Source: Promethearchaeum syntrophicum
GTDB taxonomy: Archaea > Asgardarchaeota > Lokiarchaeia > Sigyniarchaeales > Promethearchaeaceae
Length of the DNA stretch: 32,000 nucleotides
Assembly: GCF_008000775.2 (NCBI RefSeq)
Contig: NZ_CP042905.2
Location: 1,050,001 to 1,082,000, forward strand
Reading direction: 5' to 3'
This document shows positions 2,818-25,797 of the stretch, piece by piece. Position numbers and translations under genes: made by a program. The notes under the pieces are model-generated. The model saw nothing but the letters and a program-made list of their open reading frames with translations, was not told the origin of the DNA and did not search any database. Each line of letters begins with the position of its first letter. The stretch's first letter is position 1.

Positions 2818-3105
2818 ATGGCAAAAATGAAAATTGCATGGAATGCAGAGCCGATTGAAAACGAGATCTTGTATGCTTTAATTGATAATAGGGGTGAAAT
2901 GCTCACTACAGATTTACAACGGAAGTTATCCAATATGTATGAAGATTTCACTCGCGCTGATTTGATGAAACATCTTTTTAAATTAGAAGTCCGTTCTTTT
3001 ATCCATGTGGTGGGAATTAAGAAAGATGTTTCTAAAATTGAACTTAGCAAATATGGGCAATTTTCCGATGAAGTTCGAAAAAAAATTAAAGAATTTATGC
3101 ATTAA
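2818..3105 (+). CDS. Small (95 aa) hypothetical protein, winged-helix-like
   Basis: The ORF has a plausible helix-turn-helix plus beta-wing pattern (ILYALIDNRGEMLTTDLQRKLS...LMKHLFKLEVRSFIHVVG). The overlapping antisense ORF 2799-3050 looks non-protein-like. No family recognised. Confidence 0.55.
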   Translation: MAKMKIAWNAEPIENEILYALIDNRGEMLTTDLQRKLSNMYEDFTRADLMKHLFKLEVRSFIHVVGIKKDVSKIELSKYGQFSDEVRKKIKEFMH

Positions 3106-3129: not shown

Positions 3130-4893
3130 TTAACTATCTTCTTTAAGCTCAAATGTATCCAATTCTAAGAAATTTTCTTGAATAAAGATCGGTGAAATCT
3201 TTGTTATTGGCTGTTTTGAGTTATTGAAAACATCCTTATTTAAGTATTTCTGACACATTTCAGATATTGATTTTTCTCCCCGGGGATTGGGTAGCTCTCT
3301 TTTTCTAATTTTGGTAAAAATTGGATAATTTAAGGCTGCACCCATTATGAGAGCATTACCCGTAGGTAATGTGCTAATTATTTCGATTGAACTATTTGTT
3401 AATGCTTCTGATGTCTGCTTTATATGGTTAAGATCATAGGGATTTGTGATTCTCATCACTATTTGAGTATTGCATTGCGATAAGGCTGTTGTACTCAGTC
3501 GGACTGGACGTTGAGAGACAAGAACTAATTGAGCAAAAAATTTCCTTCCTTCTCGTGCAATTGTTTCAAAAATATTCTTTGTAATTGCATCTTTTCCACC
3601 TGATTCCGGTAGAAAATTATGCGCTTCTTCAAGAAAAATTATAAAAGGGGGTATTTTTCCGCTTCTGCGATAATAAAATACTTTTGAAGTTAGGTAATGG
3701 AGTAAAATCTGTTTTTTTCTCATCGAAATTATTGATGATAAATCTAGTATAGTTAACTCACCCATCTTTATCAATTCATAAATAGAAGGTGAACTTTTTT
3801 TGCTAAAAATTCTTAAATTGTTTAGATCTGCTAACCAACCAATCAAAGTTGATTGTAATTTTGAATTAATATCAGGATTTTCTGATAGTTCTGTAATTAA
3901 GTCATTGATATCATATCCTATTAAAGTACCATCATCTGCTGACTTTTCACTCTTTTTAAATTTTTTTCTGCAATTTTTAATTGCTTTTCGAAGTTCACGT
4001 AATTGTGGGATAGAAATACCTGGTTGATAACGTTTAAAATCATATTCTGTCAAGTCTGGGACTCCAATTTGAATAAATAATCCATTAAAACTTGTGATTC
4101 TATTTTGGATTGATTTCATAGAGGAAATTTTTGATTGTTCTAATTTTTCAAGAGAATCCTCGGCTTTTTCTTTTAAAAAACGATATTCTCCATGAAGATC
4201 TACAAGAAACATTGCGGGAGTTCCCAGATCTTTTGGGCGTGTAAGAAGTTCTTCAAATAAAACCGATAAAAGATAACTTTTTCCCGCTCCTGATTGTGCT
4301 AAAATTGCTACATGTTTATTAAAAAGACGATTCATATTCAATGTAACATCAAGCTTATAACTACTTAACTTTCCAATATTTAACCCGTTTTCATCCAAAC
4401 CTAAAAAATGTCTAAGAAAATTTCCTTTTAAAAGGAAAACTTTATTTCCGGGATTTACGGGAAATCCTACTCTTTGTATTCGTTTGAAAGTAGCAGGATC
4501 TATTTCATCAGAAAGATTGTTTTTGCAACGAACTGTTCCTAAAAGATGAACATCGACAATATGACACTCCCATTGATCGCTAGGAAAGAAGTTTTTCATG
4601 TTAACCTTCGCAAGATTGAAATTTTTTACCGTTTGAACATTGGAAAAATATTGGTTATTCATTCTTATCTGCTCAACTATACCTACTACGAAGCCTTCAT
4701 GTGATTCTACTAAACAATATTGGCCTTGTTGAACGAATGGTGAATTTTTTGAATTGGATACAGACTGATTATCTGTAAGAATGAAAGAATATTCAAATAT
4801 ATTAGGAGATAAGTTATTAGATCCCGATATTACAATGCCGATTGGTTCAATTTGAGGTACTGATTTTGAAGTAAGAACTTTACGAAGTGTCAT
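3130..4893 (-). CDS. HerA-like / DUF87 (COG0433) FtsK-HerA superfamily P-loop ATPase
   Basis: 587 aa. Walker A AQSGAGKSYLL, Walker B-like FIIFLEEAHNF, and the block REGRKF..LVSQRP..LSQCNTQIVMRITNPYD typical of HerA/DUF87. The beta-rich N-terminus is consistent with a HAS barrel. No NurA-like neighbour. Confidence 0.85.
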   Translation of the reverse strand: MTLRKVLTSKSVPQIEPIGIVISGSNNLSPNIFEYSFILTDNQSVSNSKNSPFVQQGQYCLVESHEGFVVGIVEQIRMNNQYFSNVQTVKNFNLAKVNMKNFFPSDQWECHIVDVHLLGTVRCKNNLSDEIDPATFKRIQRVGFPVNPGNKVFLLKGNFLRHFLGLDENGLNIGKLSSYKLDVTLNMNRLFNKHVAILAQSGAGKSYLLSVLFEELLTRPKDLGTPAMFLVDLHGEYRFLKEKAEDSLEKLEQSKISSMKSIQNRITSFNGLFIQIGVPDLTEYDFKRYQPGISIPQLRELRKAIKNCRKKFKKSEKSADDGTLIGYDINDLITELSENPDINSKLQSTLIGWLADLNNLRIFSKKSSPSIYELIKMGELTILDLSSIISMRKKQILLHYLTSKVFYYRRSGKIPPFIIFLEEAHNFLPESGGKDAITKNIFETIAREGRKFFAQLVLVSQRPVRLSTTALSQCNTQIVMRITNPYDLNHIKQTSEALTNSSIEIISTLPTGNALIMGAALNYPIFTKIRKRELPNPRGEKSISEMCQKYLNKDVFNNSKQPITKISPIFIQENFLELDTFELKEDS

Positions 4894-5000
4894 TAATTTA
4901 GAGTTATTTTATTGCCTCTTTTTAAAACAACGAGTCTGTCGGTTTAGTTCATTTAATTCAAAAAAAAACTTCAATCAAAGCTTAAATTTCTCTTTTTGAA

Positions 5001-5024
5001 AAATGTTGCCATATGGAAACATTT
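5001..5024. promoter_or_regulatory. Near-perfect 24-bp palindrome (AAATGTTGCCAT|ATGGAAACATTT, 11 of 12 arm positions) abutting a TATA-like TTTATATA at 5022-5029; candidate operator/promoter of the 5063 operon
   Basis: Read directly from the sequence. The TATA-like box is about 35 nt upstream of ATG 5063. The palindrome lies in the divergent intergenic region between the HerA-like gene and the operon. Confidence 0.45.
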
Positions 5025-5062
5025 ATATATTTTTACACTATATTTTTTTTGATTAAGAAATT

Positions 5063-6433
5063 ATGACACCCAGAGATCAAGAAAAAATAAGAGAAATTCC
5101 AATAAGTTTACGAGGTATCGAATCAATACTACGTGTTTTAAATAATGAACTTAAGGAGCCTTCTAGTATTAGACAAATTAGTGAAATAACTGGTCTTTCA
5201 ATGCGGGTAGCTAAAAATATTTTAATGCAATTAGAAAATCTTAAACAAGTGGAACGTGTAGTTGATAGGGGTCAAATATTGCCAAAATGGGGTTTAACTA
5301 GATTAGGTAAAGAAAATGCTAAAGCCATTGAAAAAAGTTCCAATGGTTTGAATAAAAACCCAAGTAATAGATTATCAGATCTATTATTAAATAATATTCA
5401 AATACCGAAAAATGTAGAGGAACAAAATATAAAGATTGGAGCGATCCATCGAAATTTCCTAAAGATATTAGATAAATTAAAATTAAATCTGAGTAAATCT
5501 ATGGGTATTTGTTATAACCTGGAACAACCGATTTTTGCCGAACGAATGGGTAATCTAATTAATAAATTAAAATCAATTAAAACCAATTTTTCGAGTTTCC
5601 GGGTAAATCCATTATCTTTCTATGATTTACATAAAAAAGGAACTAAAAAGAAGAGTTCGGCTCGAAAAAAGAAAGATTTTATTTCAGAAATTTTGTTTAT
5701 CAATCAAATTTTGCTTAATCAGCTTAATAATATCTCAGAATTAGAATTAGAGTTAAGTAATGTACTCGAACAAGAAAATTATAGATTATTTAATGAGATC
5801 TATAGACAGATCACAGATCAAATCAGGATTTTGAATTACTCGCTACAAAAAAGAACTAATGTTGATGATGGTATTCATATTCTTACTGAAGATGAATTAA
5901 TGCTCCTCCAAAAAAATGAAATTCGGCTAAGTTTCCTTAAGAATTTCATACCTCCAATATTACAAGATAATAGAAAAGAAGAATTGCTAAAAGAATGCCT
6001 CTTATCACTCATTTCTGATTTATTAGCCGAGAATTCAAAAAATTATAATAAACCATATAATATCCCTCTGGTTTCATTTTATGAATTAGCTAAAGACCAA
6101 TGTAAGTTTACAGGTTTTTCTGTAGAGAATTTGGAAGAGACACTAATTCAAATTGCTGAAAATGGTTTAATTTCCGGTATAATTGAAATTCAAGATGATG
6201 AAAACCATATTTTCAAAATTGTTCAGTTGAAACCATATGATGTTTCGGTCGATGAAATAAAACTTCTTCGATTAGCGATTCATTTAAAATCTTTTTCAAT
6301 GGCGGATGTTATGGAAAAACTAGATTGGAATCAATCGAAAGTCGAAAAAATTCTTCAAACTATGACAAATAACGGATTACTCAGGCATTCCAAATCATAT
6401 TTACAAGGAGATAAATGGTATATATTAATGTAA
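5063..6433 (+). CDS. Hypothetical 456-aa protein: N-terminal MarR/TrmB-like winged helix, long helical middle with a Lys-rich patch, two C-terminal winged-helix-like repeats
   Basis: N-terminus SIRQISEITGLSMRVAKNILMQLENLKQVERV is wHTH-like. C-terminus has ...LEETLIQIAENGLISGIIEIQDD... and ...SFSMADVMEKLDWNQSKVEKILQTMTNNGLLRH.... It is the first gene of the operon. No family recognised. Confidence 0.7.
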   Translation: MTPRDQEKIREIPISLRGIESILRVLNNELKEPSSIRQISEITGLSMRVAKNILMQLENLKQVERVVDRGQILPKWGLTRLGKENAKAIEKSSNGLNKNPSNRLSDLLLNNIQIPKNVEEQNIKIGAIHRNFLKILDKLKLNLSKSMGICYNLEQPIFAERMGNLINKLKSIKTNFSSFRVNPLSFYDLHKKGTKKKSSARKKKDFISEILFINQILLNQLNNISELELELSNVLEQENYRLFNEIYRQITDQIRILNYSLQKRTNVDDGIHILTEDELMLLQKNEIRLSFLKNFIPPILQDNRKEELLKECLLSLISDLLAENSKNYNKPYNIPLVSFYELAKDQCKFTGFSVENLEETLIQIAENGLISGIIEIQDDENHIFKIVQLKPYDVSVDEIKLLRLAIHLKSFSMADVMEKLDWNQSKVEKILQTMTNNGLLRHSKSYLQGDKWYILM

Positions 6434-6452
6434 AAAAAAAGGAGAAAATATA

Positions 6453-7349
6453 ATGTTTAGAAAGAAAAACGGCAGTATTGGTAAAGATCGATTTCCATCA
6501 ATTATATCATGGACCCAAGTTGAATCAAAAGATAAAAATTCCCAATTGATTTATTGTTATCCGAGACAGAACGATAATATTAAGAAAGGAAAATTCTTTA
6601 ATGTGAAAGAGCATGAACGTGCCATTTATTTAAAACATGGGGAATTGATTGCGGAACTGAGTGGTGGAACCTATGAATTAGAGAAAAAATCTCGAGTTAA
6701 GGGTACAGAGATTATTTGGTTTGACACTTCAATGCATCAAATCTTTTGGGGGATCCCGAAAATCAATGGTATTCCTAGTCGAGATGGTTTTATATTTGGA
6801 ATGTTTGGAGATCTCAAATTAAATATTTATAATGTTAACATTTTCTACAAGTACGTTATTGGGGGCAATAAAGAATGGTCTTTACAACAAATGAAAGATT
6901 GGATAATCAGTCTTTTTCATGTAGTTCTCCGGGATATCTTTAAAGAATATGATATTTCAGAAATATTCCAAGAATCTCGAGATATAATTATGAATAAAGT
7001 TGTTTCAAAAGTATGTGAAGAAATGAACCTGTATGGATTGGAGTTGGACGCATTTAATATCTTAGGCTTTAAACCTCCAGATAATGCGAAAGAGATTCTT
7101 AACTCTAAGCAAGAACAAGCCTATCGATTTAAGAATTGGCTTGAAAATGAAAAAAAGCGAGATATCGAAGATCGAATTTTTATTCAATATCGGATCAAAT
7201 CTTTAAAGAGTCGTCTACAAGGGCTTCAAAACGATTTGCTGGAAAATAAAATCACCAGGGAAGCATACGATTCCAAGCGCCAAACTATCAATGAGTTTAT
7301 AGAAGAAGCAAATTCTGAATTGGAACCTGACAATAGATATGAAAAATAA
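6453..7349 (+). CDS. SPFH/Band-7 superfamily protein of the YdjI/COG4260 type with a C-terminal coiled coil
   Basis: 298 aa. The N-terminal pattern (IISWTQVESKD...LIYCYP..NDNIKKGKFFNVKEHERAIYLKHGELIAELSGGTYELEK) resembles COG4260 SPFH proteins. The C-terminal heptad-like region is KNWLENEKKRDIEDR...LQGLQNDLLENK. GGAG lies 8 nt upstream of the ATG, and the gap to the previous gene is 19 nt. Confidence 0.7.
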   Translation: MFRKKNGSIGKDRFPSIISWTQVESKDKNSQLIYCYPRQNDNIKKGKFFNVKEHERAIYLKHGELIAELSGGTYELEKKSRVKGTEIIWFDTSMHQIFWGIPKINGIPSRDGFIFGMFGDLKLNIYNVNIFYKYVIGGNKEWSLQQMKDWIISLFHVVLRDIFKEYDISEIFQESRDIIMNKVVSKVCEEMNLYGLELDAFNILGFKPPDNAKEILNSKQEQAYRFKNWLENEKKRDIEDRIFIQYRIKSLKSRLQGLQNDLLENKITREAYDSKRQTINEFIEEANSELEPDNRYEK

Positions 7350-7369
7350 TATTAAGGAGAAAAAACAAA

Positions 7370-10300
7370 ATGAGAAATGGAAATAAAAATAGAACACTTA
7401 GTCAAATTACACTAATTATACTAGGAATTTGTATCATTCTTATATCAAGCATTGAAACTCATGCATCATATAATAATCCTGCACAAAACCAAGAGAAAAA
7501 TATTGAAATAAAAGCAGCAACGTTTCTTATTTCACATGACCCAATTCGAATAGATGGTAATAATGCATTAGAATCTTTTTGTGCTGGAAATGGAACTGAT
7601 GGCCTATCTTGGGAAACTGCCTTTAAAATCGAAAATTATTCAATTATTTCAGGAGAGGAATCGGGAATTTCTATAAATAATACTGATAGATTTCTAATAA
7701 TTAACAACTGTTCGATTGAAAATTTTTGGGATACAAATTATGGTGCTACTGATAATGGGATTAAAATTCTAAATTGCTCAAATATTAAAATAACGGATTG
7801 TTCTTTGACAAATAACACATTGGGGATCTTTTTAGACTCATCAACCGATATTACTTTAATCCAAAATAATTGTTCACATAATGATTGGGGATTTACCTTA
7901 TTGCGCTCCGAAAATAATACCCTATTTAATAATACTGCATTATATAATGAACATGATGGAATTAGAATATGTGAAGGTGACTATAATAATATTACTTCTA
8001 ATGTTGCTAATTTTAATTATCAGAATGGTATAAATATTGCTTCACATTTTCCTCATATTGGTTATGCACATAGTTATGGGAATTCCATTGTGAATAATTT
8101 ATTAATGCAAAATCAAGATGATGGTATTCAAATAGAATATTCTGATTCTAATTCAGTGTTAAATAACTTTGTATTCAATAATGGAAATTCTGGAATTAGC
8201 TTACAAGATTCTTCTCAGAACATTTTATCACTTAACGTAATAGATAGAAATAATAACGAAGGAATTGAAATTGAAGATGGATCTAATTGGAATTTGATTA
8301 CAAAAAATAAAATTAGTAATAATAGTTACGGAATCATGATCAGTCTTTCAAGTTATAATACTATTGGAGAAAACTTGATTGTCAATCATAGTCATAATGG
8401 GATTTTAATTTTTCATATGTTTGAAGATCATTTAGAGCAAAATATTTATGGAAATACTTTTGAAAATAATTCAGGAAATATAGCATATATACAAGTGAGT
8501 TCTGGCCGCTATGAACCCCCCTATGAATATATTGGTCTTGCAGTTTTAATTATTGGTATCGTAATCTTTCCACTTATTTATAGAAAAAAAATAAAAAAAA
8601 ATTTGATTGAGAGTGATTCCAAATTAATTTATAAAATTCTTAAAATTGCCCTTTGGATATCAATAGTTTTCACTATGGCAATATTGATTTTTGTTAGCTA
8701 TGGAGCACCAATTTTTCTGGTCGATATTCCAATTTTGATTATTGTCCTATTGGTTTTGAATCGAAAAAAAATAACAAAGCGAAGGAAAAAATTCATTGCT
8801 GAGCGTGAAATTAAGAAAAGCGAACAAAAAATTGCTAAAGCGAATAAATCTAAAGAAGCAATTGAAGAGAAGAATGAAAAACCCATTAAATCTAAGAAAA
8901 AAAGTTTAAAATCTTCAAAAATTTTGATAAAAAATATGAATCGGAAAGATTCTAAATTAATTAATAAAATTCTTAGAGTATTTTTATGGTTTGTTATGGT
9001 ATGTCTATTTATACTTCTCAGTATCTTTACACTTGGAATATTTGATATTATTGTGATCATTATTTTGATTATTTATAATAAAAAGACCAAATATTATTTT
9101 AATAATTTAAGATCCAATAAATTCATTAAAAGAGGTCAAAAGAGAACTATAAAAGCCATAAATTATGCAAAAATGCATTATTATAAAAAATCCCGATATT
9201 ATTGGTTAAGGTCGGAACGAAATTATCATCGAGCTCTAAGAATAATACCAGATTTTCATAAAATTGATTTTCTTGAGAAAAAAATAATTTCCATTAAACA
9301 GAATACATTAGCTACCTATCTATCTGAAGGGATTGTTTTAAGTAAAATTGCTTGGTTCCAATTTCAGGAAAATAACTTTTCCCAAGCAAAGAAACAATAT
9401 TCTAAGAGTATTACGTTAATTGAAGGAGTCTTAAAAAATATTGACACAGATTATGTTTTCAACCAAAAAGTAGAGTTTCCAATTACGGCCTCCTTAATTT
9501 TTGAAATTTTGCAATTTTTAAGGAAAAACACAGAACAAATTAAAAATAAAGCAAATTATAAAAACAAATCAAAGGTTTTTATAAAATCCAGTGATATACA
9601 AGAGATAAATGAGAAAATTGTTAAATCTTTAAAGGAAACGAATGAATCTTTATGGATTTATTGTCAATCTCTTGACTCTTATGAGGATTTAATCAATTTA
9701 GAAGGATTATCGAATCTATTGGAAAATAAATTAACAAAATCAGAAAAGATGTTGTTATCCGCTCAAGACCAAATGCAATATTTATTAGCATACATGCAGA
9801 GATCAACCAATAGATTTGAGAGAAAGGGTATTGAAACAAAATCAATAGCGATGAATAAAAACCGCACTTCGGAACAAGAAAGATTTGAAAATAAACATCT
9901 GAATATTATTCGAGAATATGAATATATCGGAGGTAAAATTCGCTTGAAAGTTGGTATTGTGAATCATTCAGATAATGTACTAACAAATTTAGCTCTAAGA
10001 TTCGATTTACCTGATGCTTTAAAGTGGATTATCCATGAACCGAACTTAAAACGCAGAGGTGATACGATTCATATTGCAAGGTTGGGAGGAAATGAAAAAA
10101 TAGCCATATCTCTTTATTTGGAGCCTATCAACTGTTTAGAAAGTATGATTAATGCAACTTTAACCTATTTTGATTCAAAAGATCAACCTCAAGCAGTTAT
10201 TATGACACCGAAAAAAGTTTCGATATCCTGTCCAATTTTCTTTACACGAGAAGAAGCCAACATAGCGCGTGTAAAAAAAATACAATTGCAACTGAAATAT

Positions 10301-10771
10301 GAAGATCATAAAATTTTCCCACTGGTTAAATCGAATAAATCTGAGTTAATTTTTAACAAAATACTAGGCTCTATTGGAAAACATGATGTCAAATTAGTTC
10401 AAAAAGAATTCTCACTTGACAATAACAAGGGTGAAGCATATTTCTATGGAGTAACCAAAGTGAAGAAGGATAAAATGATAATTCATTTAATATTGGATTC
10501 AAATCATCAAATTATTGAAATATCCGTGAATGGCGATGAACAAGAACCTATTACAGGGCTGCTTGCTGAACTTGAAAGCGAAATTCGCGATAAATTGCTT
10601 GTTCATAATATCATTGAAGATTCTGATAAATTCCATGATATTAATACATCAATTCTTTTGGGGAATTGTCCTTTTTGTAACGGTCCCATTTCACAAAGTA
10701 ATATTGCATTTTTCAAGAAAGGAGAAACGATATCATGCAAATATTGTGATACTACTTTAAGTCCCTATTAA
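7370..10771 (+). CDS. 1133-aa multidomain membrane protein: signal/anchor, extracellular parallel beta-helix (PbH1/CASH/NosD-like repeats), 5 further predicted TM segments including a duplicated TM hairpin, Lys-rich linker, large cytoplasmic region, C-terminal CxxC-x19-CxxC zinc ribbon
   Basis: N-terminal hydrophobic segment LSQITLIILGICIILISS. About 12 repeats of roughly 22 aa of the form N.s.N..GI.l..s..N.i..N between aa 85 and 375, carrying about a dozen N-x-S/T sequons. TM segments at about aa 388-404, 422-466 and 533-569. C-terminus CPFCNGP...SCKYCDTTL. AAGGAG lies 10 nt upstream of the ATG. Confidence 0.85.
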   Translation: MRNGNKNRTLSQITLIILGICIILISSIETHASYNNPAQNQEKNIEIKAATFLISHDPIRIDGNNALESFCAGNGTDGLSWETAFKIENYSIISGEESGISINNTDRFLIINNCSIENFWDTNYGATDNGIKILNCSNIKITDCSLTNNTLGIFLDSSTDITLIQNNCSHNDWGFTLLRSENNTLFNNTALYNEHDGIRICEGDYNNITSNVANFNYQNGINIASHFPHIGYAHSYGNSIVNNLLMQNQDDGIQIEYSDSNSVLNNFVFNNGNSGISLQDSSQNILSLNVIDRNNNEGIEIEDGSNWNLITKNKISNNSYGIMISLSSYNTIGENLIVNHSHNGILIFHMFEDHLEQNIYGNTFENNSGNIAYIQVSSGRYEPPYEYIGLAVLIIGIVIFPLIYRKKIKKNLIESDSKLIYKILKIALWISIVFTMAILIFVSYGAPIFLVDIPILIIVLLVLNRKKITKRRKKFIAEREIKKSEQKIAKANKSKEAIEEKNEKPIKSKKKSLKSSKILIKNMNRKDSKLINKILRVFLWFVMVCLFILLSIFTLGIFDIIVIIILIIYNKKTKYYFNNLRSNKFIKRGQKRTIKAINYAKMHYYKKSRYYWLRSERNYHRALRIIPDFHKIDFLEKKIISIKQNTLATYLSEGIVLSKIAWFQFQENNFSQAKKQYSKSITLIEGVLKNIDTDYVFNQKVEFPITASLIFEILQFLRKNTEQIKNKANYKNKSKVFIKSSDIQEINEKIVKSLKETNESLWIYCQSLDSYEDLINLEGLSNLLENKLTKSEKMLLSAQDQMQYLLAYMQRSTNRFERKGIETKSIAMNKNRTSEQERFENKHLNIIREYEYIGGKIRLKVGIVNHSDNVLTNLALRFDLPDALKWIIHEPNLKRRGDTIHIARLGGNEKIAISLYLEPINCLESMINATLTYFDSKDQPQAVIMTPKKVSISCPIFFTREEANIARVKKIQLQLKYEDHKIFPLVKSNKSELIFNKILGSIGKHDVKLVQKEFSLDNNKGEAYFYGVTKVKKDKMIIHLILDSNHQIIEISVNGDEQEPITGLLAELESEIRDKLLVHNIIEDSDKFHDINTSILLGNCPFCNGPISQSNIAFFKKGETISCKYCDTTLSPY
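8615..8770 (+). repeat. Intragenic duplicated module, copy 1 (DSKLIYKILKIALW... TM hairpin ...NRKK)
   Basis: Protein and DNA similarity to copy 2. GATTCCAAATTAATTTATAAAATTCTTAAA versus GATTCTAAATTAATTAATAAAATTCTTAGA; DSKLIyKILkiaLW versus DSKLInKILrvfLW. Confidence 0.6.
8948..9085 (+). repeat. Intragenic duplicated module, copy 2 (DSKLINKILRVFLW... TM hairpin ...YNKK)
   Basis: See copy 1. The copies are separated by a Lys/Glu-rich linker (KRRKKFIAEREIKKSEQKIAKANKSKEAIEEKNEKPIKSKKKSLKSSK). Confidence 0.6.
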
Positions 10772-11607: not shown

Positions 11608-12267
11608 TTATGCAGAAATTGGTAAATTGTTTACTTGATTGAATTTTCTACCACAATGTTCACAAAATGTATATTTGTTCTCTGTTAACATAGCTTTCAT
11701 TTTTGGTGTGAATTCTTCTCCACAATCTGTGCAGAAAAACTTTACTTCATTGTGGGATGAAGTTTTTGGGTGAGAAACAATCATTGTTCTTGAATTTAAT
11801 TCCTCAGATCTAGAAGTATATTCAGGTTGATTTACCCGAACTGTCTTCATTTCTTTAGGTCTTGTGACAACATATTTTCGAGGTTGATGATGATGCTGAT
11901 GATGATAATGATAGATTTTTTTATGCGTCTCTTCTTTGAACAATTTAGGATAGAATACATGAACAATTTGTTTTAAATTTGAAAGATAATTATCAACAAT
12001 TGTTGCTATGTCTTCTCCCCTTGAAATCAGTCCAATGGGCGCAGTTATAAATACAACAATTAATGTATAGAACATAATTGATAATCCCATAAAGGTTGCT
12101 TTCAAAATTTCAATAGTCAACAGGAAGGTTAATTTTAAAATTTCAAATGTAAACCAAATTGACAAAATCGTTATAACAATTGCAAGAATTAAACCAATAA
12201 TTCTTGTTTCTAAACCACCGCTTAAAAACCAGTTTTCAAGCGTATTCCATGAGTAATCGAGTATCAT
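11608..12267 (-). CDS. Membrane protein with a cytoplasmic His-rich tract and a C-terminal CxxC-x19-CxxC zinc ribbon
   Basis: 219 aa. Hydrophobic N-terminal half with at least 2 TM segments. YHYHHQHHHQ tract. C-terminus FCTDCGEEF...FCEHCGRKF. Confidence 0.7.
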   Translation of the reverse strand: MILDYSWNTLENWFLSGGLETRIIGLILAIVITILSIWFTFEILKLTFLLTIEILKATFMGLSIMFYTLIVVFITAPIGLISRGEDIATIVDNYLSNLKQIVHVFYPKLFKEETHKKIYHYHHQHHHQPRKYVVTRPKEMKTVRVNQPEYTSRSEELNSRTMIVSHPKTSSHNEVKFFCTDCGEEFTPKMKAMLTENKYTFCEHCGRKFNQVNNLPISA

Positions 12268-12497: not shown

Positions 12498-14531
12498 CTA
12501 TCCTTTTATCAAGGAGAATTCGTAATCAGCTAACCCAATTGTAGGACTAACTAATAGATAACAAAATTCTTCTGGTTCGACGAATCCCGCTAGATCAATT
12601 GGTGATTCTAATGCATTTTCTAGTTCACTCAATGTGAAATATATAATATCATGGTATTCCATCCCAAGGTCCGTTTCAACAGCTGTGATCATAGTGACAT
12701 AAAAATCAGTTTCAGCAGGTGGTGGTACTATGAAAGAAATAAGTCCATCCGCATCGTCGATTATTTCACCATTAAGTGCTATGTTATCCACCCACCAACC
12801 TGGATCTTCGTATCCCCAATCAGTCATATAACGGAATTGTAATTGAACCACTTGACCAGCATATGCAGAAAGGTCAAAACCCATGTTGATCCAACCTAGT
12901 GAATCACCACACAATCCAGGTAATTCTTCAGCGATGGCAGGATAACCTTCGTCCTCGATATCATAAGTCGTATATTCATTTGCTAAAGATGTCCAAGTAG
13001 TACCATAATCAGTGGAAATTTGCACAAATCCATAGTCCCAATTTGGTTCAATAATATATTTAGTGTCGAAACTAAACAAAGGTGAAGCACCATAGGCTGA
13101 CAAGTTAATTTCTGTATACAATTTAATATCACTCTCTGGAGCAGACGGAGTTGAATAATATTCGAGGTCGCCATCACCATCTTCATCAACTAATTCCCAT
13201 GTTGCCAAAGTGGCATAATTATCACCATCAAAATCAAAAGTGGTTATAAAACGATCATGAATGTTGCCCAATTTAATATAATCCGTTCCATAAGAGCCAG
13301 TCATATAAAACCCTGTTTTATCTTGGAGATAACTCACTGTTTCTCCCAATTCAACCCCCGTTACTGTATCATAGGGTTTATTTATATTGTATATCCGGAG
13401 ATAATCTACTGTGTTTAAATCAAACATCTCGTAATTGTACTTTCCATCGCCTATGGAATCGGTATGGAGTAAATTCGCAATGGTCCAATCGAGATAAATG
13501 TCCTCAAATTTTTCCGTATAACCAAAATGTGATAACGTATTCTCAATCCCTGCTACATCTGGAATTCCCGCTTGCACAAAATAACTTAGAAATTCAGCTC
13601 CAAAATGATCCGCTAGATATGCTGCCCACATGAAGGCTTGTCCATAATCCGCGAGAATATTCAAACCTCCTTGATCTCCCCATTCTGTTAGTGAATTGTC
13701 GGGAGTAGCCAAAAAGGCTTCGATATCACCCCAAGGGATATTATACCCGCACAATGGTTCAGCAAACATGGAGCATCCTTCATTCATCCATGATCCATCC
13801 AAAGGGTTATAATCATCATGAATTAAATGTTGATATTCATGGGCAAGTGTAGGTGCATAAACTGTTTCTTTTCGATTAGCAAAATCAGCCGAATCAATGG
13901 ATACGATATTGCGATCAAAAGCATCTTCAAATACTCCCCAATAAAATCCAACAACATAATATGGATATTGTTGATCGTAATATCCCTCATCACGAATGTT
14001 GGAAATCAGAATTACATTACGTCCGGTGGGTTCGAGGTAGAGATCTCCTAAAATGGAATCACTTCCGTTATGGAAATTAGGTGTTCCGAAATATTCGGTA
14101 TCTTTTGGATAAATATTGCTTTCAAATTCAGCTACAAACCATTCGGCGTCTTCAGTAGTAACAACAGGTGTTTCTCGTGAATCTGGATAGCTCATATCAA
14201 TTTGTACCCAAACTTCCGAAAGGTTACCTAGTGCCATTAATTGAAACGCATCGACAATTATTCCCCCTTCAGCATTGTCATCGCTGACATACCATTCCAA
14301 GGTATCTCCTACTAAGTAATAGGAATCACCAGAAGACTGTGGTGAGATACTAAGACTTGATGTCATTGGATATTCTGATATTTTTCTAGAGCGCAGTTCG
14401 GGACCCGCATCATAGGGTTTTTGTTCGACATATTCGGTATTCGGTGAGAGTAATGAGAAACTTGTAATTCCCCCAAAAATTCCTCCTACTATGATCGTTA
14501 CCAATAATATTGGAAAATATTTCGATTTCAT
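12498..14531 (-). CDS. Secreted zinc metalloprotease, M6 / immune inhibitor A (InhA)-like
   Basis: 677 aa. N-terminal signal/anchor KYFPILLVTIIVGGIFGG. HExxH in TLAHEYQHLIHDD followed by WMNEGCSMFAE, as in M6 peptidases. Acidic, Lys-poor mature region. Confidence 0.8.
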   Translation of the reverse strand: MKSKYFPILLVTIIVGGIFGGITSFSLLSPNTEYVEQKPYDAGPELRSRKISEYPMTSSLSISPQSSGDSYYLVGDTLEWYVSDDNAEGGIIVDAFQLMALGNLSEVWVQIDMSYPDSRETPVVTTEDAEWFVAEFESNIYPKDTEYFGTPNFHNGSDSILGDLYLEPTGRNVILISNIRDEGYYDQQYPYYVVGFYWGVFEDAFDRNIVSIDSADFANRKETVYAPTLAHEYQHLIHDDYNPLDGSWMNEGCSMFAEPLCGYNIPWGDIEAFLATPDNSLTEWGDQGGLNILADYGQAFMWAAYLADHFGAEFLSYFVQAGIPDVAGIENTLSHFGYTEKFEDIYLDWTIANLLHTDSIGDGKYNYEMFDLNTVDYLRIYNINKPYDTVTGVELGETVSYLQDKTGFYMTGSYGTDYIKLGNIHDRFITTFDFDGDNYATLATWELVDEDGDGDLEYYSTPSAPESDIKLYTEINLSAYGASPLFSFDTKYIIEPNWDYGFVQISTDYGTTWTSLANEYTTYDIEDEGYPAIAEELPGLCGDSLGWINMGFDLSAYAGQVVQLQFRYMTDWGYEDPGWWVDNIALNGEIIDDADGLISFIVPPPAETDFYVTMITAVETDLGMEYHDIIYFTLSELENALESPIDLAGFVEPEEFCYLLVSPTIGLADYEFSLIKG

Positions 14532-16719: not shown

Positions 16720-17643
16720 ATGAATTCTGAAGAAAAAAATATTGGAGATCCAATGGTATTTGATAATTCAGAAGATGATCTTGATTATAATATAGAAGAA
16801 ATTTACAAAAAGTTACAAAATATTGGCTCTTTTACAATAAATGATTCAAAAATTTATGTTACACTTTTAAAAATTGGATTGTCTAACCCTGCTGTTATTT
16901 CAGAGAAAAGTAAAGTTGATAGAGCTAGGGTTTATGATTCACTAAAAAGATTAGTAAAAAGAGGAATTGTTGAAGAAGAACCTGTGAAAAGAGCACCTCG
17001 TTACCGAGCTTTTCCTCCAGATGTAGTTTTTGGCACAATAAGAAAAAAATTGAATAACCAAATTAACCTGGCAACTTCTTTAGAAAAACAGCTAGCTCAA
17101 ATAAAAACAGAATCAACTGAAAAAAATTCCGTTTGGTCTATTCAAGGGAAGCATAAGATCAATAAGAAATTTTACGAAATTATCCAAAATGCTGAAGAAT
17201 TTTGCTTTATCTTCCTAACTTTAGACTATTCTATAAGTTCAATTAATGAATTAGAATTATTAGAAGGTGTAATAATGGAAAAACTTCGATCTAATCCTTC
17301 ACTAACCATTAAAATTGCATTAAAAATATTCCCGGAAAAAGATGATCAGAAATCAATTTTAAATAGATTATTCCATGCAAATATTGAAATTTTTCGCTGG
17401 AAACCAAAAAGTGTGCTTCCTTTTGGCTTAATTCTTACAGATTCTGAATTTATGCAAACATTCTTGAGTGGAACAGTACCAAAGCCTATGTATGAATTTG
17501 GAATTCTAATGGAAAAAGCTGGACAGGATCAGTTAATGGGATTTAAACATCTCTGCATCTGGGTTTTTTATCAATTGTGTAAAAAGTTGGTTTTTACGAA
17601 GACCCAAAGAAATATTCAAATTGAGGGCGATGATGATGAATAG
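16720..17643 (+). CDS. TrmB-family transcriptional regulator-like protein
   Basis: 307 aa. After an acidic N-terminal extension, YVTLLKIGLSNPAVISEKSKVDRARVYDSLKRLVKRGIVEE matches the TrmB wHTH pattern. The C-terminal domain is of TrmB-like length. Confidence 0.75.
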   Translation: MNSEEKNIGDPMVFDNSEDDLDYNIEEIYKKLQNIGSFTINDSKIYVTLLKIGLSNPAVISEKSKVDRARVYDSLKRLVKRGIVEEEPVKRAPRYRAFPPDVVFGTIRKKLNNQINLATSLEKQLAQIKTESTEKNSVWSIQGKHKINKKFYEIIQNAEEFCFIFLTLDYSISSINELELLEGVIMEKLRSNPSLTIKIALKIFPEKDDQKSILNRLFHANIEIFRWKPKSVLPFGLILTDSEFMQTFLSGTVPKPMYEFGILMEKAGQDQLMGFKHLCIWVFYQLCKKLVFTKTQRNIQIEGDDDE

Positions 17644-17745
17644 AAAAATAAATCTTAAATTGGATAACTCAGAAATAGGTATAAACTACCCAAAAACTTT
17701 TATATTTTTTAAAATTTAATTCAAATGGCTTAAGAGGTAAAATTA

Positions 17746-18285
17746 ATGGATTACAAATGTAAAATGAGCATTATAGGTGATGAGAACGTTGGAAAAACCT
17801 CCATAATTCTAAGATATTTAAACAACACATTTACAAATCAATATATAACCACTCTAGGGGCTGATTTCGTTGATAAAGTATATTTTAAATCTGATCTTCC
17901 TTCTCTTAACCCAGAAGATAGTTTAACAGTAACAATTTGGGATTTAGGAGGACAAAAATCCTTTCAAGAAATATCTACACTATATTGCGAAGGATCTGCA
18001 GGCATTATGATTGTTTTTGATGTGTCTAATGTAGAAACTTTTAATTCGGTTCCAAATTGGATCGATTTCGCTAAAAATTGCTGTCCCAAGGCTCAATTAG
18101 TATTAATCGGAAATAAAAGCGATTTAGAATCGACTATAGATGCCGATAAGATTCGAAATTTAGAAAAGGAAATTGGGAGTAAAGTATATTTTAGTTCAGC
18201 CAAAGTGAGTTTAACAAACAAACTCTCAAATATCAACAATATATTTGAAAATATGGCCGAAAACTTATTGAAAATTTCGCGATAA
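17746..18285 (+). CDS. Small GTPase of the Ras superfamily, Rab-like
   Basis: G1 GDENVGKTS, switch I YITTLGADF (Rab-like IGxDF), G3 WDLGGQ, G4 GNKSD, G5 SSAK. 179 aa. No C-terminal Cys prenylation motif (ends LLKISR). GAGGT lies 9 nt upstream of the ATG. Confidence 0.9.
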   Translation: MDYKCKMSIIGDENVGKTSIILRYLNNTFTNQYITTLGADFVDKVYFKSDLPSLNPEDSLTVTIWDLGGQKSFQEISTLYCEGSAGIMIVFDVSNVETFNSVPNWIDFAKNCCPKAQLVLIGNKSDLESTIDADKIRNLEKEIGSKVYFSSAKVSLTNKLSNINNIFENMAENLLKISR

Positions 18286-19651: not shown

Positions 19652-20701
19652 TTAGAATAGACTCATTAACCATAATATAATTATCAAGGCAAAATCTAAT
19701 GCGAAAAATGCCTTATTTGGTATTTCAATAATATAGTCTTTAAAGAAATTAAATATCCCCTTAATATGTATAATCAAAGATTTCCTATATTTTACCAAGA
19801 AAACAATACTAAAAACAAAGATAGGCAAGTATATTATTAAAAAAGTTTCTTGCCAAAATGGAACTCCATCCATATTCCTTCTGAGAATAATCGCGGAAAT
19901 GACATTATTTGTCCAATGTGCAAAAATCAACGGCCATAATTGCTTTTTTGAGATATAGAAATATGCAGATGTAATTCCAATAACGGTTCCATTGAATCCC
20001 CACCAAAATGGATAGAAAATCGGACTTGCGCCTTCATATGGTAAAAAAATATAAGAAAAATGAGCCATACCGAATAAAAACGCACTAAAGATAAAAGCAG
20101 TGCTCTTATTTACCGTTTTTTCTCCCATATATATGTAAAATCCTCTAAAAACAAATTCTTCCCTTAAAGCAATAAAAAAATGAATAATAAATGTCATTAT
20201 TATCATCAGACCGATATCATACAGCAAATAATTTCCTAAAATAGATTCTGGTGATATAAGTGCATCTGCTTGATATTCCAATACATCCAATTTAAATATT
20301 AAAGGAATGACATAACTGAAGAAATCTAATGGAATATATATTACACAGATTAAAAACAAGGCAGATTTTAACTGAGAACGAAAATTTTTAAATGTAAATC
20401 CTTGAAATAATAATTTTAAGCTGGGATCTGCCTTTTCTTTAATACTAAGTGATTCTTTTTCAGATGCAGAATCGTCTTCGTCCAATCTTAAAAATGATTT
20501 ATTCATAAAATAAAATACAATCATGGCTGCAGATATATTCATTAAAGCATGACCTAAATAGGTCAAAATAATTCTCACGGGTTCATTTAATGGAATAAAA
20601 TCGAGAATTACATCAAAAATCATACGAAAAATAAAATAAAATACTGCTAGAAATATTATAGATAGAGCAAAATACATTCGTTTTTCAATATTTTTATCCA
20701 T
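19652..20701 (-). CDS. CPBP-family (CAAX/Abi) intramembrane glutamic endopeptidase
   Basis: Polytopic membrane protein with REEFVFRGF (EExxxR), FGMAHF (FxxxH) and HWTNN motifs. Confidence 0.8.
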   Translation of the reverse strand: MDKNIEKRMYFALSIIFLAVFYFIFRMIFDVILDFIPLNEPVRIILTYLGHALMNISAAMIVFYFMNKSFLRLDEDDSASEKESLSIKEKADPSLKLLFQGFTFKNFRSQLKSALFLICVIYIPLDFFSYVIPLIFKLDVLEYQADALISPESILGNYLLYDIGLMIIMTFIIHFFIALREEFVFRGFYIYMGEKTVNKSTAFIFSAFLFGMAHFSYIFLPYEGASPIFYPFWWGFNGTVIGITSAYFYISKKQLWPLIFAHWTNNVISAIILRRNMDGVPFWQETFLIIYLPIFVFSIVFLVKYRKSLIIHIKGIFNFFKDYIIEIPNKAFFALDFALIIILWLMSLF

Positions 20702-20731: not shown

Positions 20732-21919
20732 TTAATATTTAAATTTGCCCACAGTTGATGTAATTGTCAGTTGATTTTCATTTTGTACATTAGATTTTTC
20801 AAGTCGTCCAATTATTCTGGCATCGACTGAAAATTTCCTTGCCATGGGGATAATTATATTTTTAGCATATTCTTTGGTGCAAATAATTTCTAATAAATTA
20901 CCCATATTAAATACTCGATACATTTCGTCCCAAGGTGTTTTTGATGATTCCTGAATCATAGAAAATAATGGAGGTATTGGAAATAAATTATCTTTAATAT
21001 AGTGGATTTCATGTCCAAATTTCAAACATTTTGTCTGCCCGCCGCCCGTATTATGAAAAATTGCATGAATTTTTCTATAATCTTCCTTGAAAATCTCCAT
21101 TAGAATCGGTGCAAAAGTTCTTGTAGGAGATAATAATGCTTCACCTACAGATAGTGGTGTGTCAGGAACTTTATCGTTTAAATCATGTTTTCCGAAGAAA
21201 ACAAATTCTTTATCAATTTCAGGAGCGAAACATTCTGGGTATTTTTCATAATATTTATGATTTAATAAACCATGGCGAGCTAAAGTTAATCCGTTGCTAC
21301 CGATTCCAGAGTTATATTCTATATTTTCATAACTTGTTTTTCCAAAGCTGCTCAAACCAACTATAACATCACCTTCACGAATTGTTTTTGGATTAATAAC
21401 ATCCTTTCTCTTCATTCGTGTAATTAAAGTGCTGTCTACAATCAAAGTTCGAACAAGATCTCCAACATCGGCAGTTTCTCCCCCTCCAGTGTAAATGGGG
21501 ATACCATGATCTCTTAATTTTTTAACATATTCTTCATAAGATTGAATTATTTTTGCAATAATTTCTCCCGAAATTATTTTTTTATTGCGTCCAATCGTGT
21601 TTGATAACAGAATCGAAGTAGGTTTTCCTACGCAAATAATATCATCGAGATTCATTATTACACTATCTTGAACTATACCTTTGAAATATGATAGATCTTT
21701 TGTTTCTTGATACATCATATATGCTAAAGTGGATTTTGTTCCTGCCCCATCTGCATGAAGTATCGAACAAAATTCATTATCCAGAGCAATATCTTCAATA
21801 ATTTTACAAAAAGCTGAAGGAAATAATCCTTTGTCAATATTTTTTAAAGCCGAATGTACATCTTCTTTTTGCGAAGATACACCTAGATTTTCATATGAAG
21901 GTATTTTTTTTTGGGACAT
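20732..21919 (-). CDS. purM: AIR synthase (phosphoribosylformylglycinamidine cyclo-ligase, PurM)-family protein, long form
   Basis: 395 aa. HADGAGTKS (compare the PurM DGVGTK motif). The N-terminus ...GVSSQKEDVHSALKNIDKGLFPSAFCKI resembles the long-form PurM I recall from Bacteroidetes-type enzymes (memory only). It is 16 nt downstream of purB. Confidence 0.7.
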   Translation of the reverse strand: MSQKKIPSYENLGVSSQKEDVHSALKNIDKGLFPSAFCKIIEDIALDNEFCSILHADGAGTKSTLAYMMYQETKDLSYFKGIVQDSVIMNLDDIICVGKPTSILLSNTIGRNKKIISGEIIAKIIQSYEEYVKKLRDHGIPIYTGGGETADVGDLVRTLIVDSTLITRMKRKDVINPKTIREGDVIVGLSSFGKTSYENIEYNSGIGSNGLTLARHGLLNHKYYEKYPECFAPEIDKEFVFFGKHDLNDKVPDTPLSVGEALLSPTRTFAPILMEIFKEDYRKIHAIFHNTGGGQTKCLKFGHEIHYIKDNLFPIPPLFSMIQESSKTPWDEMYRVFNMGNLLEIICTKEYAKNIIIPMARKFSVDARIIGRLEKSNVQNENQLTITSTVGKFKY

Positions 21920-21935
21920 TTTAATCAGATAGTTC

Positions 21936-23963: not shown

Positions 23964-24395
23964 ATGAATGTATTTGCAAAGGCATTAACAATTAAAGAAG
24001 CCTCCCAACTCGTTAGATCTATGAAGACTCCCAATGAAGTTGAGCAAAGAATTAACAAATTAAAAACTCTCTCTTCAATCAATGATTCTAAAAACAAATA
24101 CCACCTTTTAGGAAAATTAATAACTGAACTTCTTGCAATTTTTCCCAATACTATGCCAAAATTCTATCTAATAGAGAAAGGGGAAAAAGAATTTAGTTTA
24201 CAAGAAGAGTTTATAGAAAAAGTAATAGAAAACTTAAATAAAATCGGGCTAGTTCTTATAAATAAGATCGATAATAAAGTTGTTTTAAAATTTCCCAGCA
24301 TTCCGTTTTCAGCTATGAACGGGAAGCTTAATGTTTCACACCCAAACCCTATAAAAAATCGTCATGGAAGAAGTAAAAAAACCAAAAAGAAATGA
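23964..24395 (+). CDS. Hypothetical 143-aa protein with a basic C-terminal tail, immediately upstream of tldD
   Basis: The ORF ends 4 nt before ATG 24400 of tldD. It is preferred over antisense ORF 23894-24148. The in-frame upstream sequence encodes a Zn-ribbon-like CxxC...CxxC but has no canonical start (see findings). Confidence 0.5.
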   Translation: MNVFAKALTIKEASQLVRSMKTPNEVEQRINKLKTLSSINDSKNKYHLLGKLITELLAIFPNTMPKFYLIEKGEKEFSLQEEFIEKVIENLNKIGLVLINKIDNKVVLKFPSIPFSAMNGKLNVSHPNPIKNRHGRSKKTKKK

Positions 24396-24399
24396 TAAT

Positions 24400-25794: not shown

Positions 25795-25797
25795 AAA

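Follow-up and report, generated by a model that had tools for sequence, protein, structure and literature searches.

What kind of system is encoded by three closely spaced genes of the archaeon Promethearchaeum syntrophicum MK-D1, which lie on the plus strand beside a divergent gene for a HerA-like ATPase? The genes sit within a 32,000-nucleotide (nt) stretch of contig NZ_CP042905.2 (positions 1,050,001 to 1,082,000), hereafter the window, in which a sequence-only reading had seen a candidate membrane-associated system of all four genes. We refer to the plus-strand genes (DSAG12_01531-33) as g1 (456 amino acids, aa), SPFH (298 aa), and g3 (1133 aa); the four proteins, including the ATPase, have accessions QEE15703-QEE15706. 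[quoted passage not shown] Profile searches and structural models suggest that g1, SPFH, and g3 are three relatives of eukaryotic membrane-trafficking parts.

The genes and their ribosome-binding sites are arranged as follows.

3130-4893, minus strand: HerA/DUF87-like ATPase (DSAG12_01530, 587 aa); open reading frame (ORF) and domain matches
5063-6433, plus strand: g1 (DSAG12_01531, 456 aa); ORF, AlphaFold2, Foldseek, and profile searches
6440-6444, plus strand: Shine-Dalgarno AGGAG of the SPFH gene, 8 nt before its ATG
6453-7349, plus strand: SPFH protein (DSAG12_01532, 298 aa); ORF and Pfam PF13421
7355-7359, plus strand: Shine-Dalgarno AGGAG of g3, 10 nt before its ATG
7370-10771, plus strand: g3 (DSAG12_01533, 1133 aa); ORF, Pfam, AlphaFold2, and hydropathy

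Gaps of 19 nt (g1-SPFH) and 20 nt (SPFH-g3) separate the genes of the operon, and a 169-nt region (4894-5062) divides it from the ATPase gene. Reading frames, gaps, Shine-Dalgarno sites, divergent region, and a palindrome had all been called in the sequence-only reading and are borne out on the sequence, as are its domain calls, for which the family matches are DUF87/HerA for the ATPase, Band_7_1 for the SPFH protein, and NosD/Beta_helix for the N-terminal half of g3. Its broader claim also holds for the three plus-strand genes, which make up a genuine and conserved module, associated with the membrane, that had not been described before. We found no paper that mentions DSAG12_01531-33 or QEE15704-6, though the asCOG tables in the supplement of PMC10936438 may already list them.

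g1 resembles the EAP30 proteins of ESCRT-II

An AlphaFold2 model of g1 based on an 18-sequence alignment (predicted local distance difference test score, pLDDT, 84) shows three winged helices, one N-terminal (aa 16-78 in the model) and two C-terminal (aa 333-453), around a helical bundle, in agreement with the earlier description of g1 as a triple winged-helix protein. Hydropathy indicates no membrane segment. The following parts can be distinguished.

5090-5317, plus strand: N-terminal winged helix (aa 10-85), candidate operator-binding domain; AlphaFold2 and conservation, with DNA binding predicted
5360-6022, plus strand: helical bundle (aa ~100-320); AlphaFold2
6059-6430, plus strand: tandem winged helices (aa 333-456), EAP30-like core; AlphaFold2, Foldseek, and hhalign

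The model has the EAP30 fold of ESCRT-II, in which a helical N-terminal region is followed by tandem winged helices. Its best Foldseek matches in the PDB were human SNF8/Vps22 (3cuq_A and 2zme_A, E 4-5e-4, ~232 columns), and the next were yeast Vps22 and Vps36 (1u5t_A; 2zme_B being Vps36), which ranked above MarR-type regulators. We also searched 1.84 billion cluster representatives with a g1 profile in HMMER and recovered 113 proteins at E<1e-3, about 26 of them family members (E up to 1e-30). Sixty distant matches, all longer than 200 aa, were then scanned against Pfam: 50 carried EAP30/Vps36 (PF04157, best 5.8e-26) and seven carried TrmB. The nearest outgroup of g1 consists of EAP30-like hypothetical proteins from Helarchaeota that share the helical bundle, with matches spanning profile positions 105-450.

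Conservation within g1 is uneven, with 61-76% identity in the N-terminal winged helix, the most conserved region, versus 26-38% in the helical bundle. The N-terminal winged helix weakly matches the DNA-binding winged-helix families FaeA (8/13) and Rrf2 (7/13). Taken together, profile and model comparisons suggest that g1 belongs to the EAP30 (Vps22/Vps36) superfamily as a divergent member and has gained a further winged helix at its N-terminus.

The g1-SPFH gene pair is the invariant core

We collected homologues of g1 by protein search (19 matches, all from Asgard archaea), by looking up the encoding contigs, and by scanning metagenomes with the g1 profile (49 loci); loci and contigs are cited below by our own identifiers (L002, L003, and so on). 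Clustering the full-length g1 proteins from these loci gives 34 groups at 90% identity and 23 at 70%. Forty-four loci have at least 400 nt downstream of g1 and were included in the synteny count. An SPFH gene directly follows g1 on the same strand in all 44, after a gap of 13-99 nt (median 42). Gene-neighborhood conservation, which the sequence-only reading proposed to check for all four genes, is therefore seen for the g1-SPFH pair; the third gene varies, and adjacency of the divergent HerA gene is confined to the genus. The invariant core is thus the g1-SPFH gene pair and not a triad. The module is self-contained and restricted to Lokiarchaeia-type Asgard archaea.

The SPFH protein matches Pfam Band_7_1 (PF13421) at 42.8 bits against a gathering cut-off of 24 (E 5.9e-11), with the SPFH domain at aa ~33-223 and a helical tail at its C-terminus. 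Its PDB profile match is stomatin (2.6e-5), and a word-indexed homologue search found 13 close Asgard matches, every one with PF13421 (13/13). Hydropathy shows no membrane segment, and the polytopic g3 starts 20 nt downstream. Being soluble and of the Band_7_1 type, the protein is YdjI-like, as had been proposed. By analogy with Bacillus subtilis YdjI, which is soluble and recruited by YdjG/H (PMC8581546; bioRxiv 10.64898/2026.02.06.704340), it would be expected to depend on a partner for its membrane localization (PMC8581546). YdjI in turn recruits the ESCRT-III homologue PspA (same sources); the operon in the window has no PspA/ESCRT-III gene. A second SPFH paralogue occurs in the metagenome-assembled genome (MAG) that contains L005: there, an appendage-zinc-ribbon gene comes before the SPFH gene rather than after it (L016:1-3371), on a contig that shows no g1 or operator.

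What follows the pair differs between lineages. Orthologues of the C-terminal half of g3 come after SPFH in L002, L003, L013, and L029, probably in L111, and possibly in L005, the last two being cut by contig ends. The N-terminal parts of these orthologues are polytopic. Where window-type loci contain the whole third gene, SPFH and the g3-type gene are spaced by -23 to +20 nt. Other third genes encode large signal-anchored beta-helix surface proteins (L008, L082, L085, and L086), a protein with a GRAM domain and a zinc ribbon (L006; Pfam GRAM 3e-7), or a 72-aa zinc ribbon (L121). Third-gene products that are unrelated to one another nevertheless end in a zinc ribbon in L006, L080, and L121. 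Yet another third-gene family, of soluble proteins of ~360 aa that we call Znr360, aligned with the appendage-zinc-ribbon profile over 224 columns (hhalign 88%, E 3e-6), and this alignment suggests that Znr360 proteins are divergent appendage-zinc-ribbon proteins. In most lineages, then, the third gene supplies membrane attachment, a C-terminal zinc ribbon, or both. A small gene leads the operon in L029 (Promethearchaeota CR_4): ahead of g1 and in the same orientation, it encodes a 105-aa protein with a zinc ribbon and two to three transmembrane segments (2594-2911) that resembles B. subtilis YdjG/YdjH.

g3 is a membrane protein with a predicted adaptin ear

From its N-terminus, g3 consists of a signal/anchor, a beta-helix ectodomain, about five transmembrane segments, an MIT/TPR-like helical region, an adaptin appendage, and a zinc ribbon, as assigned below.

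7631-8491, plus strand: right-handed beta-helix (NosD-like) ectodomain (aa ~88-374); Pfam NosD 4e-29 and Beta_helix 8e-28
8516-9088, plus strand: polytopic region (aa 383-573), with one transmembrane segment and two duplicated hairpins with a basic linker between; hydropathy
9089-9814, plus strand: juxtamembrane helical domain (aa 574-815); AlphaFold2 helices
9899-10603, plus strand: predicted adaptin/COPI appendage, with a beta-sandwich (aa 844-950) and a platform (aa 965-1078); AlphaFold2 and Foldseek
10640-10768, plus strand: C-terminal zinc ribbon CPFC...CKYC (aa 1091-1133); sequence and model

Hydropathy indicates one N-terminal and about five internal membrane segments, and their order places aa 574-1133 in the cytoplasm. 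We modeled this C-terminal half with AlphaFold2 (pLDDT 82) and obtained the helical region, a beta-sandwich, an alpha/beta platform, and the zinc ribbon. Foldseek matched the appendage to a COPI leaf chain (9qpq_H, 1.9e-10), AP2 alpha-adaptin (1e-9), beta2-adaptin (1.5e-8), and gamma-COP (1.7e-7), with matches that span ~245 columns and both subdomains. Pfam Alpha_adaptinC2 was detected in 12 of the 52 members of the family defined by the C-terminal half of g3. The helical region matches MIT in 4/10 members (best 1e-5) and TPR_2 in 8/10 at the family level, with a PDB match to the VPS4A MIT domain at E 0.0016; the helical region of the window g3 alone matches only TPR at 0.03, which is not significant. 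The cytoplasmic half of g3 is therefore modeled as an adaptin/COPI appendage and zinc ribbon behind helices that are MIT/TPR-like at the family level.

In the sequence-only reading, the beta-helix had a central place as a surface receptor or adhesin. The orthologues in L002, L003, L013, and L029 retain membrane anchor, appendage, and zinc ribbon, and the beta-helix is missing from those in L002, L003, and L029; on g3-type proteins it occurs only in the genus Promethearchaeum. The receptor proposal is thus not supported: the beta-helix is a genus-specific accretion, and the conserved part of g3 is the anchor with its cytoplasmic appendage and zinc ribbon.

The family of the g3 C-terminal half is large, has variable N-terminal parts, and extends to Promethearchaeia, Hermodarchaeota, Thorarchaeota, Thermoplasmata, and Methanoperedens. 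It is rich in paralogues, with tandem gene pairs in Promethearchaeia (L021, L022, L025, L026, and L028). The appendage-zinc-ribbon unit lies near the C-terminal end of giant ORFs of up to ~3,600 aa in Thermoplasmata (L045-L068), and in Methanoperedens (L054, L059, L061, and L062) it clusters with FGE-sulfatase domains, a single-AAA ATPase gene standing directly upstream.

A dedicated operator precedes g1

The strong palindrome that the sequence-only reading saw in the divergent region is present, looks functional, and is conserved upstream of the operon in every lineage.

5001-5024: putative operator, a 24-nt palindrome with halves AAATGTTGCCAT and ATGGAAACATTT and core CCATATGG; 11/12 positions complementary
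5022-5029, plus strand: TATA-like box TTTATATA, a probable archaeal promoter, 34 nt before the g1 ATG; sequence

The right arm of the palindrome overlaps the position of the B recognition element (BRE) and TATA box, and the same juxtaposition is seen in L013, L008, L011, and L006. The pattern is unique in the window, where 0.04 matches are expected by chance. It is a perfect palindrome in L013, is found identical upstream of g1 in L008-L010, whose g1 has 38% identity to that of the window, and occurs as variants with the same CCATATGG core in L002, L005, and L003. A search for the strict palindrome, N6-CCATATGG-N6, returned 11 copies in 987 kb, each 54-69 nt upstream of a g1 start. With the relaxed pattern TGTTnCCATATGGnAACA (up to 4/16 mismatches, 1.26 Mb), a site lies within 130 nt upstream of g1 in all 44 eligible loci, against ~0.25 expected by chance. 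Copies with up to two mismatches outside this 130-nt zone all lie just upstream of partial or mis-started g1 genes; the exception is a copy at the ubiquitin-like cassette of L081, described below. A copy with three mismatches is located ~100 nt upstream of the operon-leading zinc-ribbon/transmembrane gene of L029. A promoter/terminator scan based on a bacterial consensus gave 48 promoter-like sites versus 54 expected and was uninformative.

Judged by this distribution, the palindrome appears to be a dedicated operator that is essentially operon-specific. Such a conserved and specific operator, together with the hyper-conserved N-terminal winged helix of g1, argues that a dedicated regulator travels with the operon, and for this role g1 is the obvious choice. 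Its likely mode of action is repression, given that the site lies over the position of the BRE and TATA box.

These observations also bear on the main alternative, in which g1 is just a winged-helix transcription factor (TrmB/MarR-like) of an SPFH operon that acts on its own in membrane stress, as an archaeal equivalent of YdjGHI, and in which the EAP30 and adaptin resemblances reflect shared folds only. The layout of g1 – winged helix, long helices, C-terminal domain – resembles that of TrmB-type regulators. Operator and N-terminal winged helix are as conserved as this alternative would have them, the last winged helix of g1 has weak Pfam matches to TrmB and IclR, MarR chains are among the Foldseek matches of the model, and no ESCRT-III/Vps4 gene appeared among the families listed for the neighbors of g1 loci. 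However, prokaryotic proteomes abound in regulators of the MarR and TrmB types, and yet the g1 profile retrieves EAP30 proteins far more often than TrmB-like ones. The tightly spaced adjacency of g1 and SPFH is strictly one-to-one, and the pair keeps recurring beside appendage proteins and a UFM1-like cassette, neighbors that are typical of Asgard ESCRT contexts (PMC10936438). A purely regulatory role is disfavored because EAP30 retrieval is specific and because of these appendage and UFM1-like contexts; we consider it unlikely overall, though we still give it appreciable weight.

A UFM1-like cassette adjoins the pair in sister lineages

Fourteen loci have a five-gene UFM1-like conjugation cassette beside the g1-SPFH pair, in three arrangements: downstream, upstream, or divergent. 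The cassette encodes Znr360, a ThiF-type E1 (Pfam 3e-54), a JAB protein (3e-7), an 88-aa ubiquitin-like protein ending in RGIVG, and a UFC1-like E2 (PDB UFC1, E 3e-4; Pfam UFC1, 1e-4). We take the RGIVG terminus to be comparable to the RDRVG of UFM1; a PDB search with the 88-aa protein gave no match. Cassettes were located as follows.

L078: 8511-11963
L087: 3114-7308
L109: 315-4374
L081: 1669-5735, with the ubiquitin-like protein and E2 fused and an operator copy upstream of the cassette
Also present in L080, L091, L097, L102, L104, L110, L117, and L124

The changing arrangement of the cassette argues for a functional link to g1-SPFH. One could suppose that a UFM1-like conjugation pathway uses the module as its platform at the membrane, in the manner of a receptor or E3-like scaffold: SPFH, the appendage-zinc-ribbon protein, and the EAP30-like protein would recruit or sort membrane proteins modified with the ubiquitin-like protein, the MK-D1 conjugation genes lying elsewhere. 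The three arrangements and the operator copy in L081 would fit this proposal, as would reported Asgard fusions of adaptin/COPI C-terminal domains with Vps28/23 and the UFM1 E3 (bioRxiv 10.1101/2020.10.19.343400). Against it, the cassette is absent from the 32-kb window and from L002, L003, and L005, its linkage is confined to one g1 clade, and the ubiquitin-like protein lacks a significant sequence match. We regard this proposal as quite improbable.

The HerA ATPase is a neighbor, not a component

The remaining question is whether the divergent ATPase belongs to the module. Its product matches Pfam DUF87/HerA (1.6e-25) and PADLOC HerA (1e-55) and falls far under the equivalog cut-offs, with 148.7 bits against 970 for NCBIfam helicase_HerA and 122 against 800 for HerA_antiphage; it therefore matches the general DUF87/HerA superfamily only. 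The ORFs of the window that were scanned include no NurA, as the sequence-only reading had said. Neither the family scores nor a conserved adjacent partner such as NurA or SIR2 places the gene in a HerA-NurA or HerA-defense system.

A HerA homologue adjoins the operon only in the window and in the congeneric MAG locus L013, and is absent from ~45 other loci. Upstream of g1, each lineage has different genes (HIRAN, DsrE, Alba, and unknowns). Given this adjacency in the window and L013 only and the turnover of upstream genes, the HerA ATPase is an unrelated genus-level neighbor and not the system component that had been suggested. We looked for a conserved fourth gene upstream of g1 and found none.

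Genes flanking the operon in the window are housekeeping genes (Cdc48, FEN1, GATase, and purine genes), so its surroundings are of a housekeeping kind rather than a defense island. This bears on the original four-gene model, in which a HerA-like translocase powers or complements a beta-helix receptor, an SPFH protein, and a nucleic-acid-binding protein, and on its variant as an anti-virus defense. The divergent genes do share the 169-nt region that holds the operator, and HerA does match PADLOC HerA models. However, the synteny data largely refute the model: no HerA homologue adjoins the operon outside the genus. In addition, the g3 orthologues in L002, L003, and L029 lack the beta-helix, housekeeping genes surround the operon, and among PADLOC defense models SPFH and g3 have no match and g1 has weak winged-helix matches only. 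The four-gene model is thus very unlikely.

A model for the g1-SPFH-g3 module

We return to the account that we favor, an autoregulated ESCRT-II-like/SPFH/adaptin-ear membrane module. The product of the third gene would tether the SPFH protein at the membrane, much as YdjI is held there by YdjG/H in Bacillus, and g1 would dock on this SPFH platform via its EAP30-like half. There g1 could serve as an ESCRT-II-like adaptor, either to ESCRT-III or to cargo that bears a ubiquitin-like tag, the genes for both lying elsewhere. With its N-terminal winged helix, g1 would bind the operator and repress the operon. Capture of g1 at the membrane could then couple membrane state to operon expression in a feedback loop.

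Several observations weigh against this account. g1 itself has no direct Pfam EAP30 (PF04157) match at E<0.1, with weak winged-helix matches only, and PDB profile matches of its tandem winged helices to SNF8 are weak (E 0.07-0.3). The hhalign comparison that speaks for an EAP30 relationship (99.8% and E 3.6e-28 over the tandem winged helices) is partly circular, in that the second alignment was chosen with the g1 profile. The window g3 likewise has no direct Alpha_adaptinC2 or MIT match. About ten g1-SPFH loci lack a co-directional third gene, which means that a membrane tether is not universal in cis. ESCRT-III, Vps4, PspA, and Snf7 were not found in the annotated contexts of g1 loci or among the best 25 families of 132 neighbor proteins, and the ESCRT link therefore rests on homology and analogy. 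For g1 as the operator binder, we compared operator variants (GATCCCATATGGGATC and GTCCCCATATGGGGAC versus TGTTnCC...) with recognition-helix and wing residues of g1 and saw a loose trend only; no clean covariation of operator variants with recognition-helix residues emerged. Finally, gene calls at the loci came from our simple ORF caller, scored with family hidden Markov models.

A bolder extension is that the operon encodes an archaeal forerunner of a eukaryote-style membrane sorting platform. At an SPFH cage held by the adaptin-ear protein, g1 would recognize membrane cargo carrying a UFM1-like tag, pass it to ESCRT-III, and double as a membrane-sequestered repressor of its own operon, so that membrane state feeds back directly on transcription. 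We think this unlikely, but if true it would bring together, in a single genetically tractable module of a cultured Asgard archaeon, the ancestors of ESCRT-II, of flotillin/stomatin scaffolds, of coat-adaptor ears, and of UFMylation. SPFH baskets have reportedly been imaged recently in a Heimdallarchaeon.

Many homologues of trafficking proteins are known from Asgard archaea, but few occur in compact, conserved operons that show which parts cooperate. The operon described here appears to join a paralogue of ESCRT-II to an SPFH scaffold and to an adaptin ear anchored in the membrane, with a UFM1-like cassette beside them in sister lineages. It is present in the cultured strain MK-D1, and with a defined 24-bp operator and a candidate autoregulator it is directly testable. 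Annotation is also corrected, in that the labels 'hypothetical protein' and 'NosD domain-containing protein' conceal what we predict to be ESCRT-II-like and adaptin-ear proteins.

Other genes in the window and at g1 loci

Other genes of the window, with strands where assigned, are as follows.

455-2692: full-length double-AAA Cdc48, two genes upstream of g1; not Vps4
2818-3105, plus strand: 95-aa ORF convergent with HerA, without a family match, kept in L013 (3618-3905) and supported by a gene call in a Logan assembly
11608-12267, minus strand: 219-aa protein with a C-terminal zinc ribbon (Pfam Zn_ribbon_8 4e-4, under the cut-off), 0.8 kb 3' of g3
12498-14531, minus strand: 677-aa protein with an InhA-like MAM domain
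16720-18285: TrmB-family regulator (3e-15), then a Ras/Roc-family small GTPase (5.5e-34), a typical eukaryote-like Asgard gene
19652-20701, minus strand: Rce1-like CAAX protease
20732-23321: purine genes (adenylosuccinate lyase and AIR-synthase-like)
24364-27177, plus strand: TldD/PmbA pair

Ras/Roc GTPases and leucine-rich repeat (LRR) proteins recur among the neighbors of g1 loci. Proteins with a CDC48_N domain only lie near g1 in L104 (5050-5820) and L106 (59-829), where they are adjacent and divergent, and in L119 (214-1137), a few genes upstream. These neighbors may indicate a weak recurrent link to a segregase N-domain. Linkage of Cdc48 itself to the module was considered and rejected as too sparse, full-length Cdc48 being near g1 only within the genus and CDC48_N-only proteins only in L104, L106, and L119.

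Comparison with known systems

The sequence-only reading had matched the gene combination to no named system. The genes are indeed previously undescribed; nevertheless, a close analogue exists in the literature, namely the Meth_adaptin ESCRT loci of Methanosarcinales (Makarova et al. 2024, mBio, PMC10936438; e.g., Methanosalsum zhilinae WP_013898571-78). These loci combine Vps4 and ESCRT-III with an SPFH protein (arCOG15283), an appendage-zinc-ribbon protein (arCOG15284), a transmembrane-linker appendage protein, and a coiled-coil protein with a C-terminal winged helix (PMC10936438). Likened by domain kind from that description, the MK-D1 operon would contain all three kinds of accessory protein: SPFH, appendage-zinc-ribbon, and winged-helix. 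It differs in that Meth_adaptin loci are built on Vps4/ESCRT-III, neither of which appeared in Pfam scans of the window or among the families listed for related g1 loci. The Meth_adaptin SPFH protein, moreover, carries its own coiled coil and zinc ribbon, and neither an operator nor a winged-helix protein with an added N-terminal domain of DNA-binding type is described there. Our own genome scan with the appendage profile reached Methanoperedens/Methanogaster loci, with AAA ATPases and FGE-sulfatase adjacent, and its summary showed no Snf7 or SPFH.

PMC10936438 itself draws a parallel between Meth_adaptin loci and YdjI with PspA, and the PspA-YdjGHI (SamGHI) system of Bacillus is a second relative. 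The sequence-only reading's analogy with the zinc-ribbon and membrane partners ydjG/ydjH proves apt: both systems encode a soluble Band_7_1 SPFH protein beside tethering membrane proteins, have a zinc-finger motif in the complex, and would share a partner of the ESCRT superfamily and a coupling to transcriptional signaling. The partner differs, however, being the ESCRT-III-like PspA in Bacillus and the putatively ESCRT-II/EAP30-like g1 here; the membrane partner g3 bears a predicted adaptin appendage; and regulation is by sigma-W in Bacillus, whereas here there is a dedicated palindromic operator.

Two eukaryotic assemblies complete the comparison. At the level of profile and fold, g1 resembles ESCRT-II subunits (Vps22/SNF8 and Vps36) in having a helical N-terminal region and then tandem winged helices. 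Unlike them it carries one more winged helix at the N-terminus, its helical bundle is much longer, and, besides lacking the direct Pfam match noted above, it is not encoded with Vps25, Vps23, Vps28, or ESCRT-III in any g1 locus. The modeled ear of g3 shares the bipartite beta-sandwich and platform of AP2 alpha/beta2 and COPI ears over ~245 columns, but is carried on a polytopic membrane protein with a zinc ribbon and not on an adaptin HEAT-repeat trunk. Adaptin-appendage domains in Asgard archaea were already known in general. What these comparisons add is an archaeal module of ESCRT/SPFH/adaptin type, as far as its parts can be judged by homology, that is not described in the papers we found, and through it the ESCRT-SPFH-adaptin connection proposed from Methanosarcinales genomes would extend to the closest relatives of eukaryotes.

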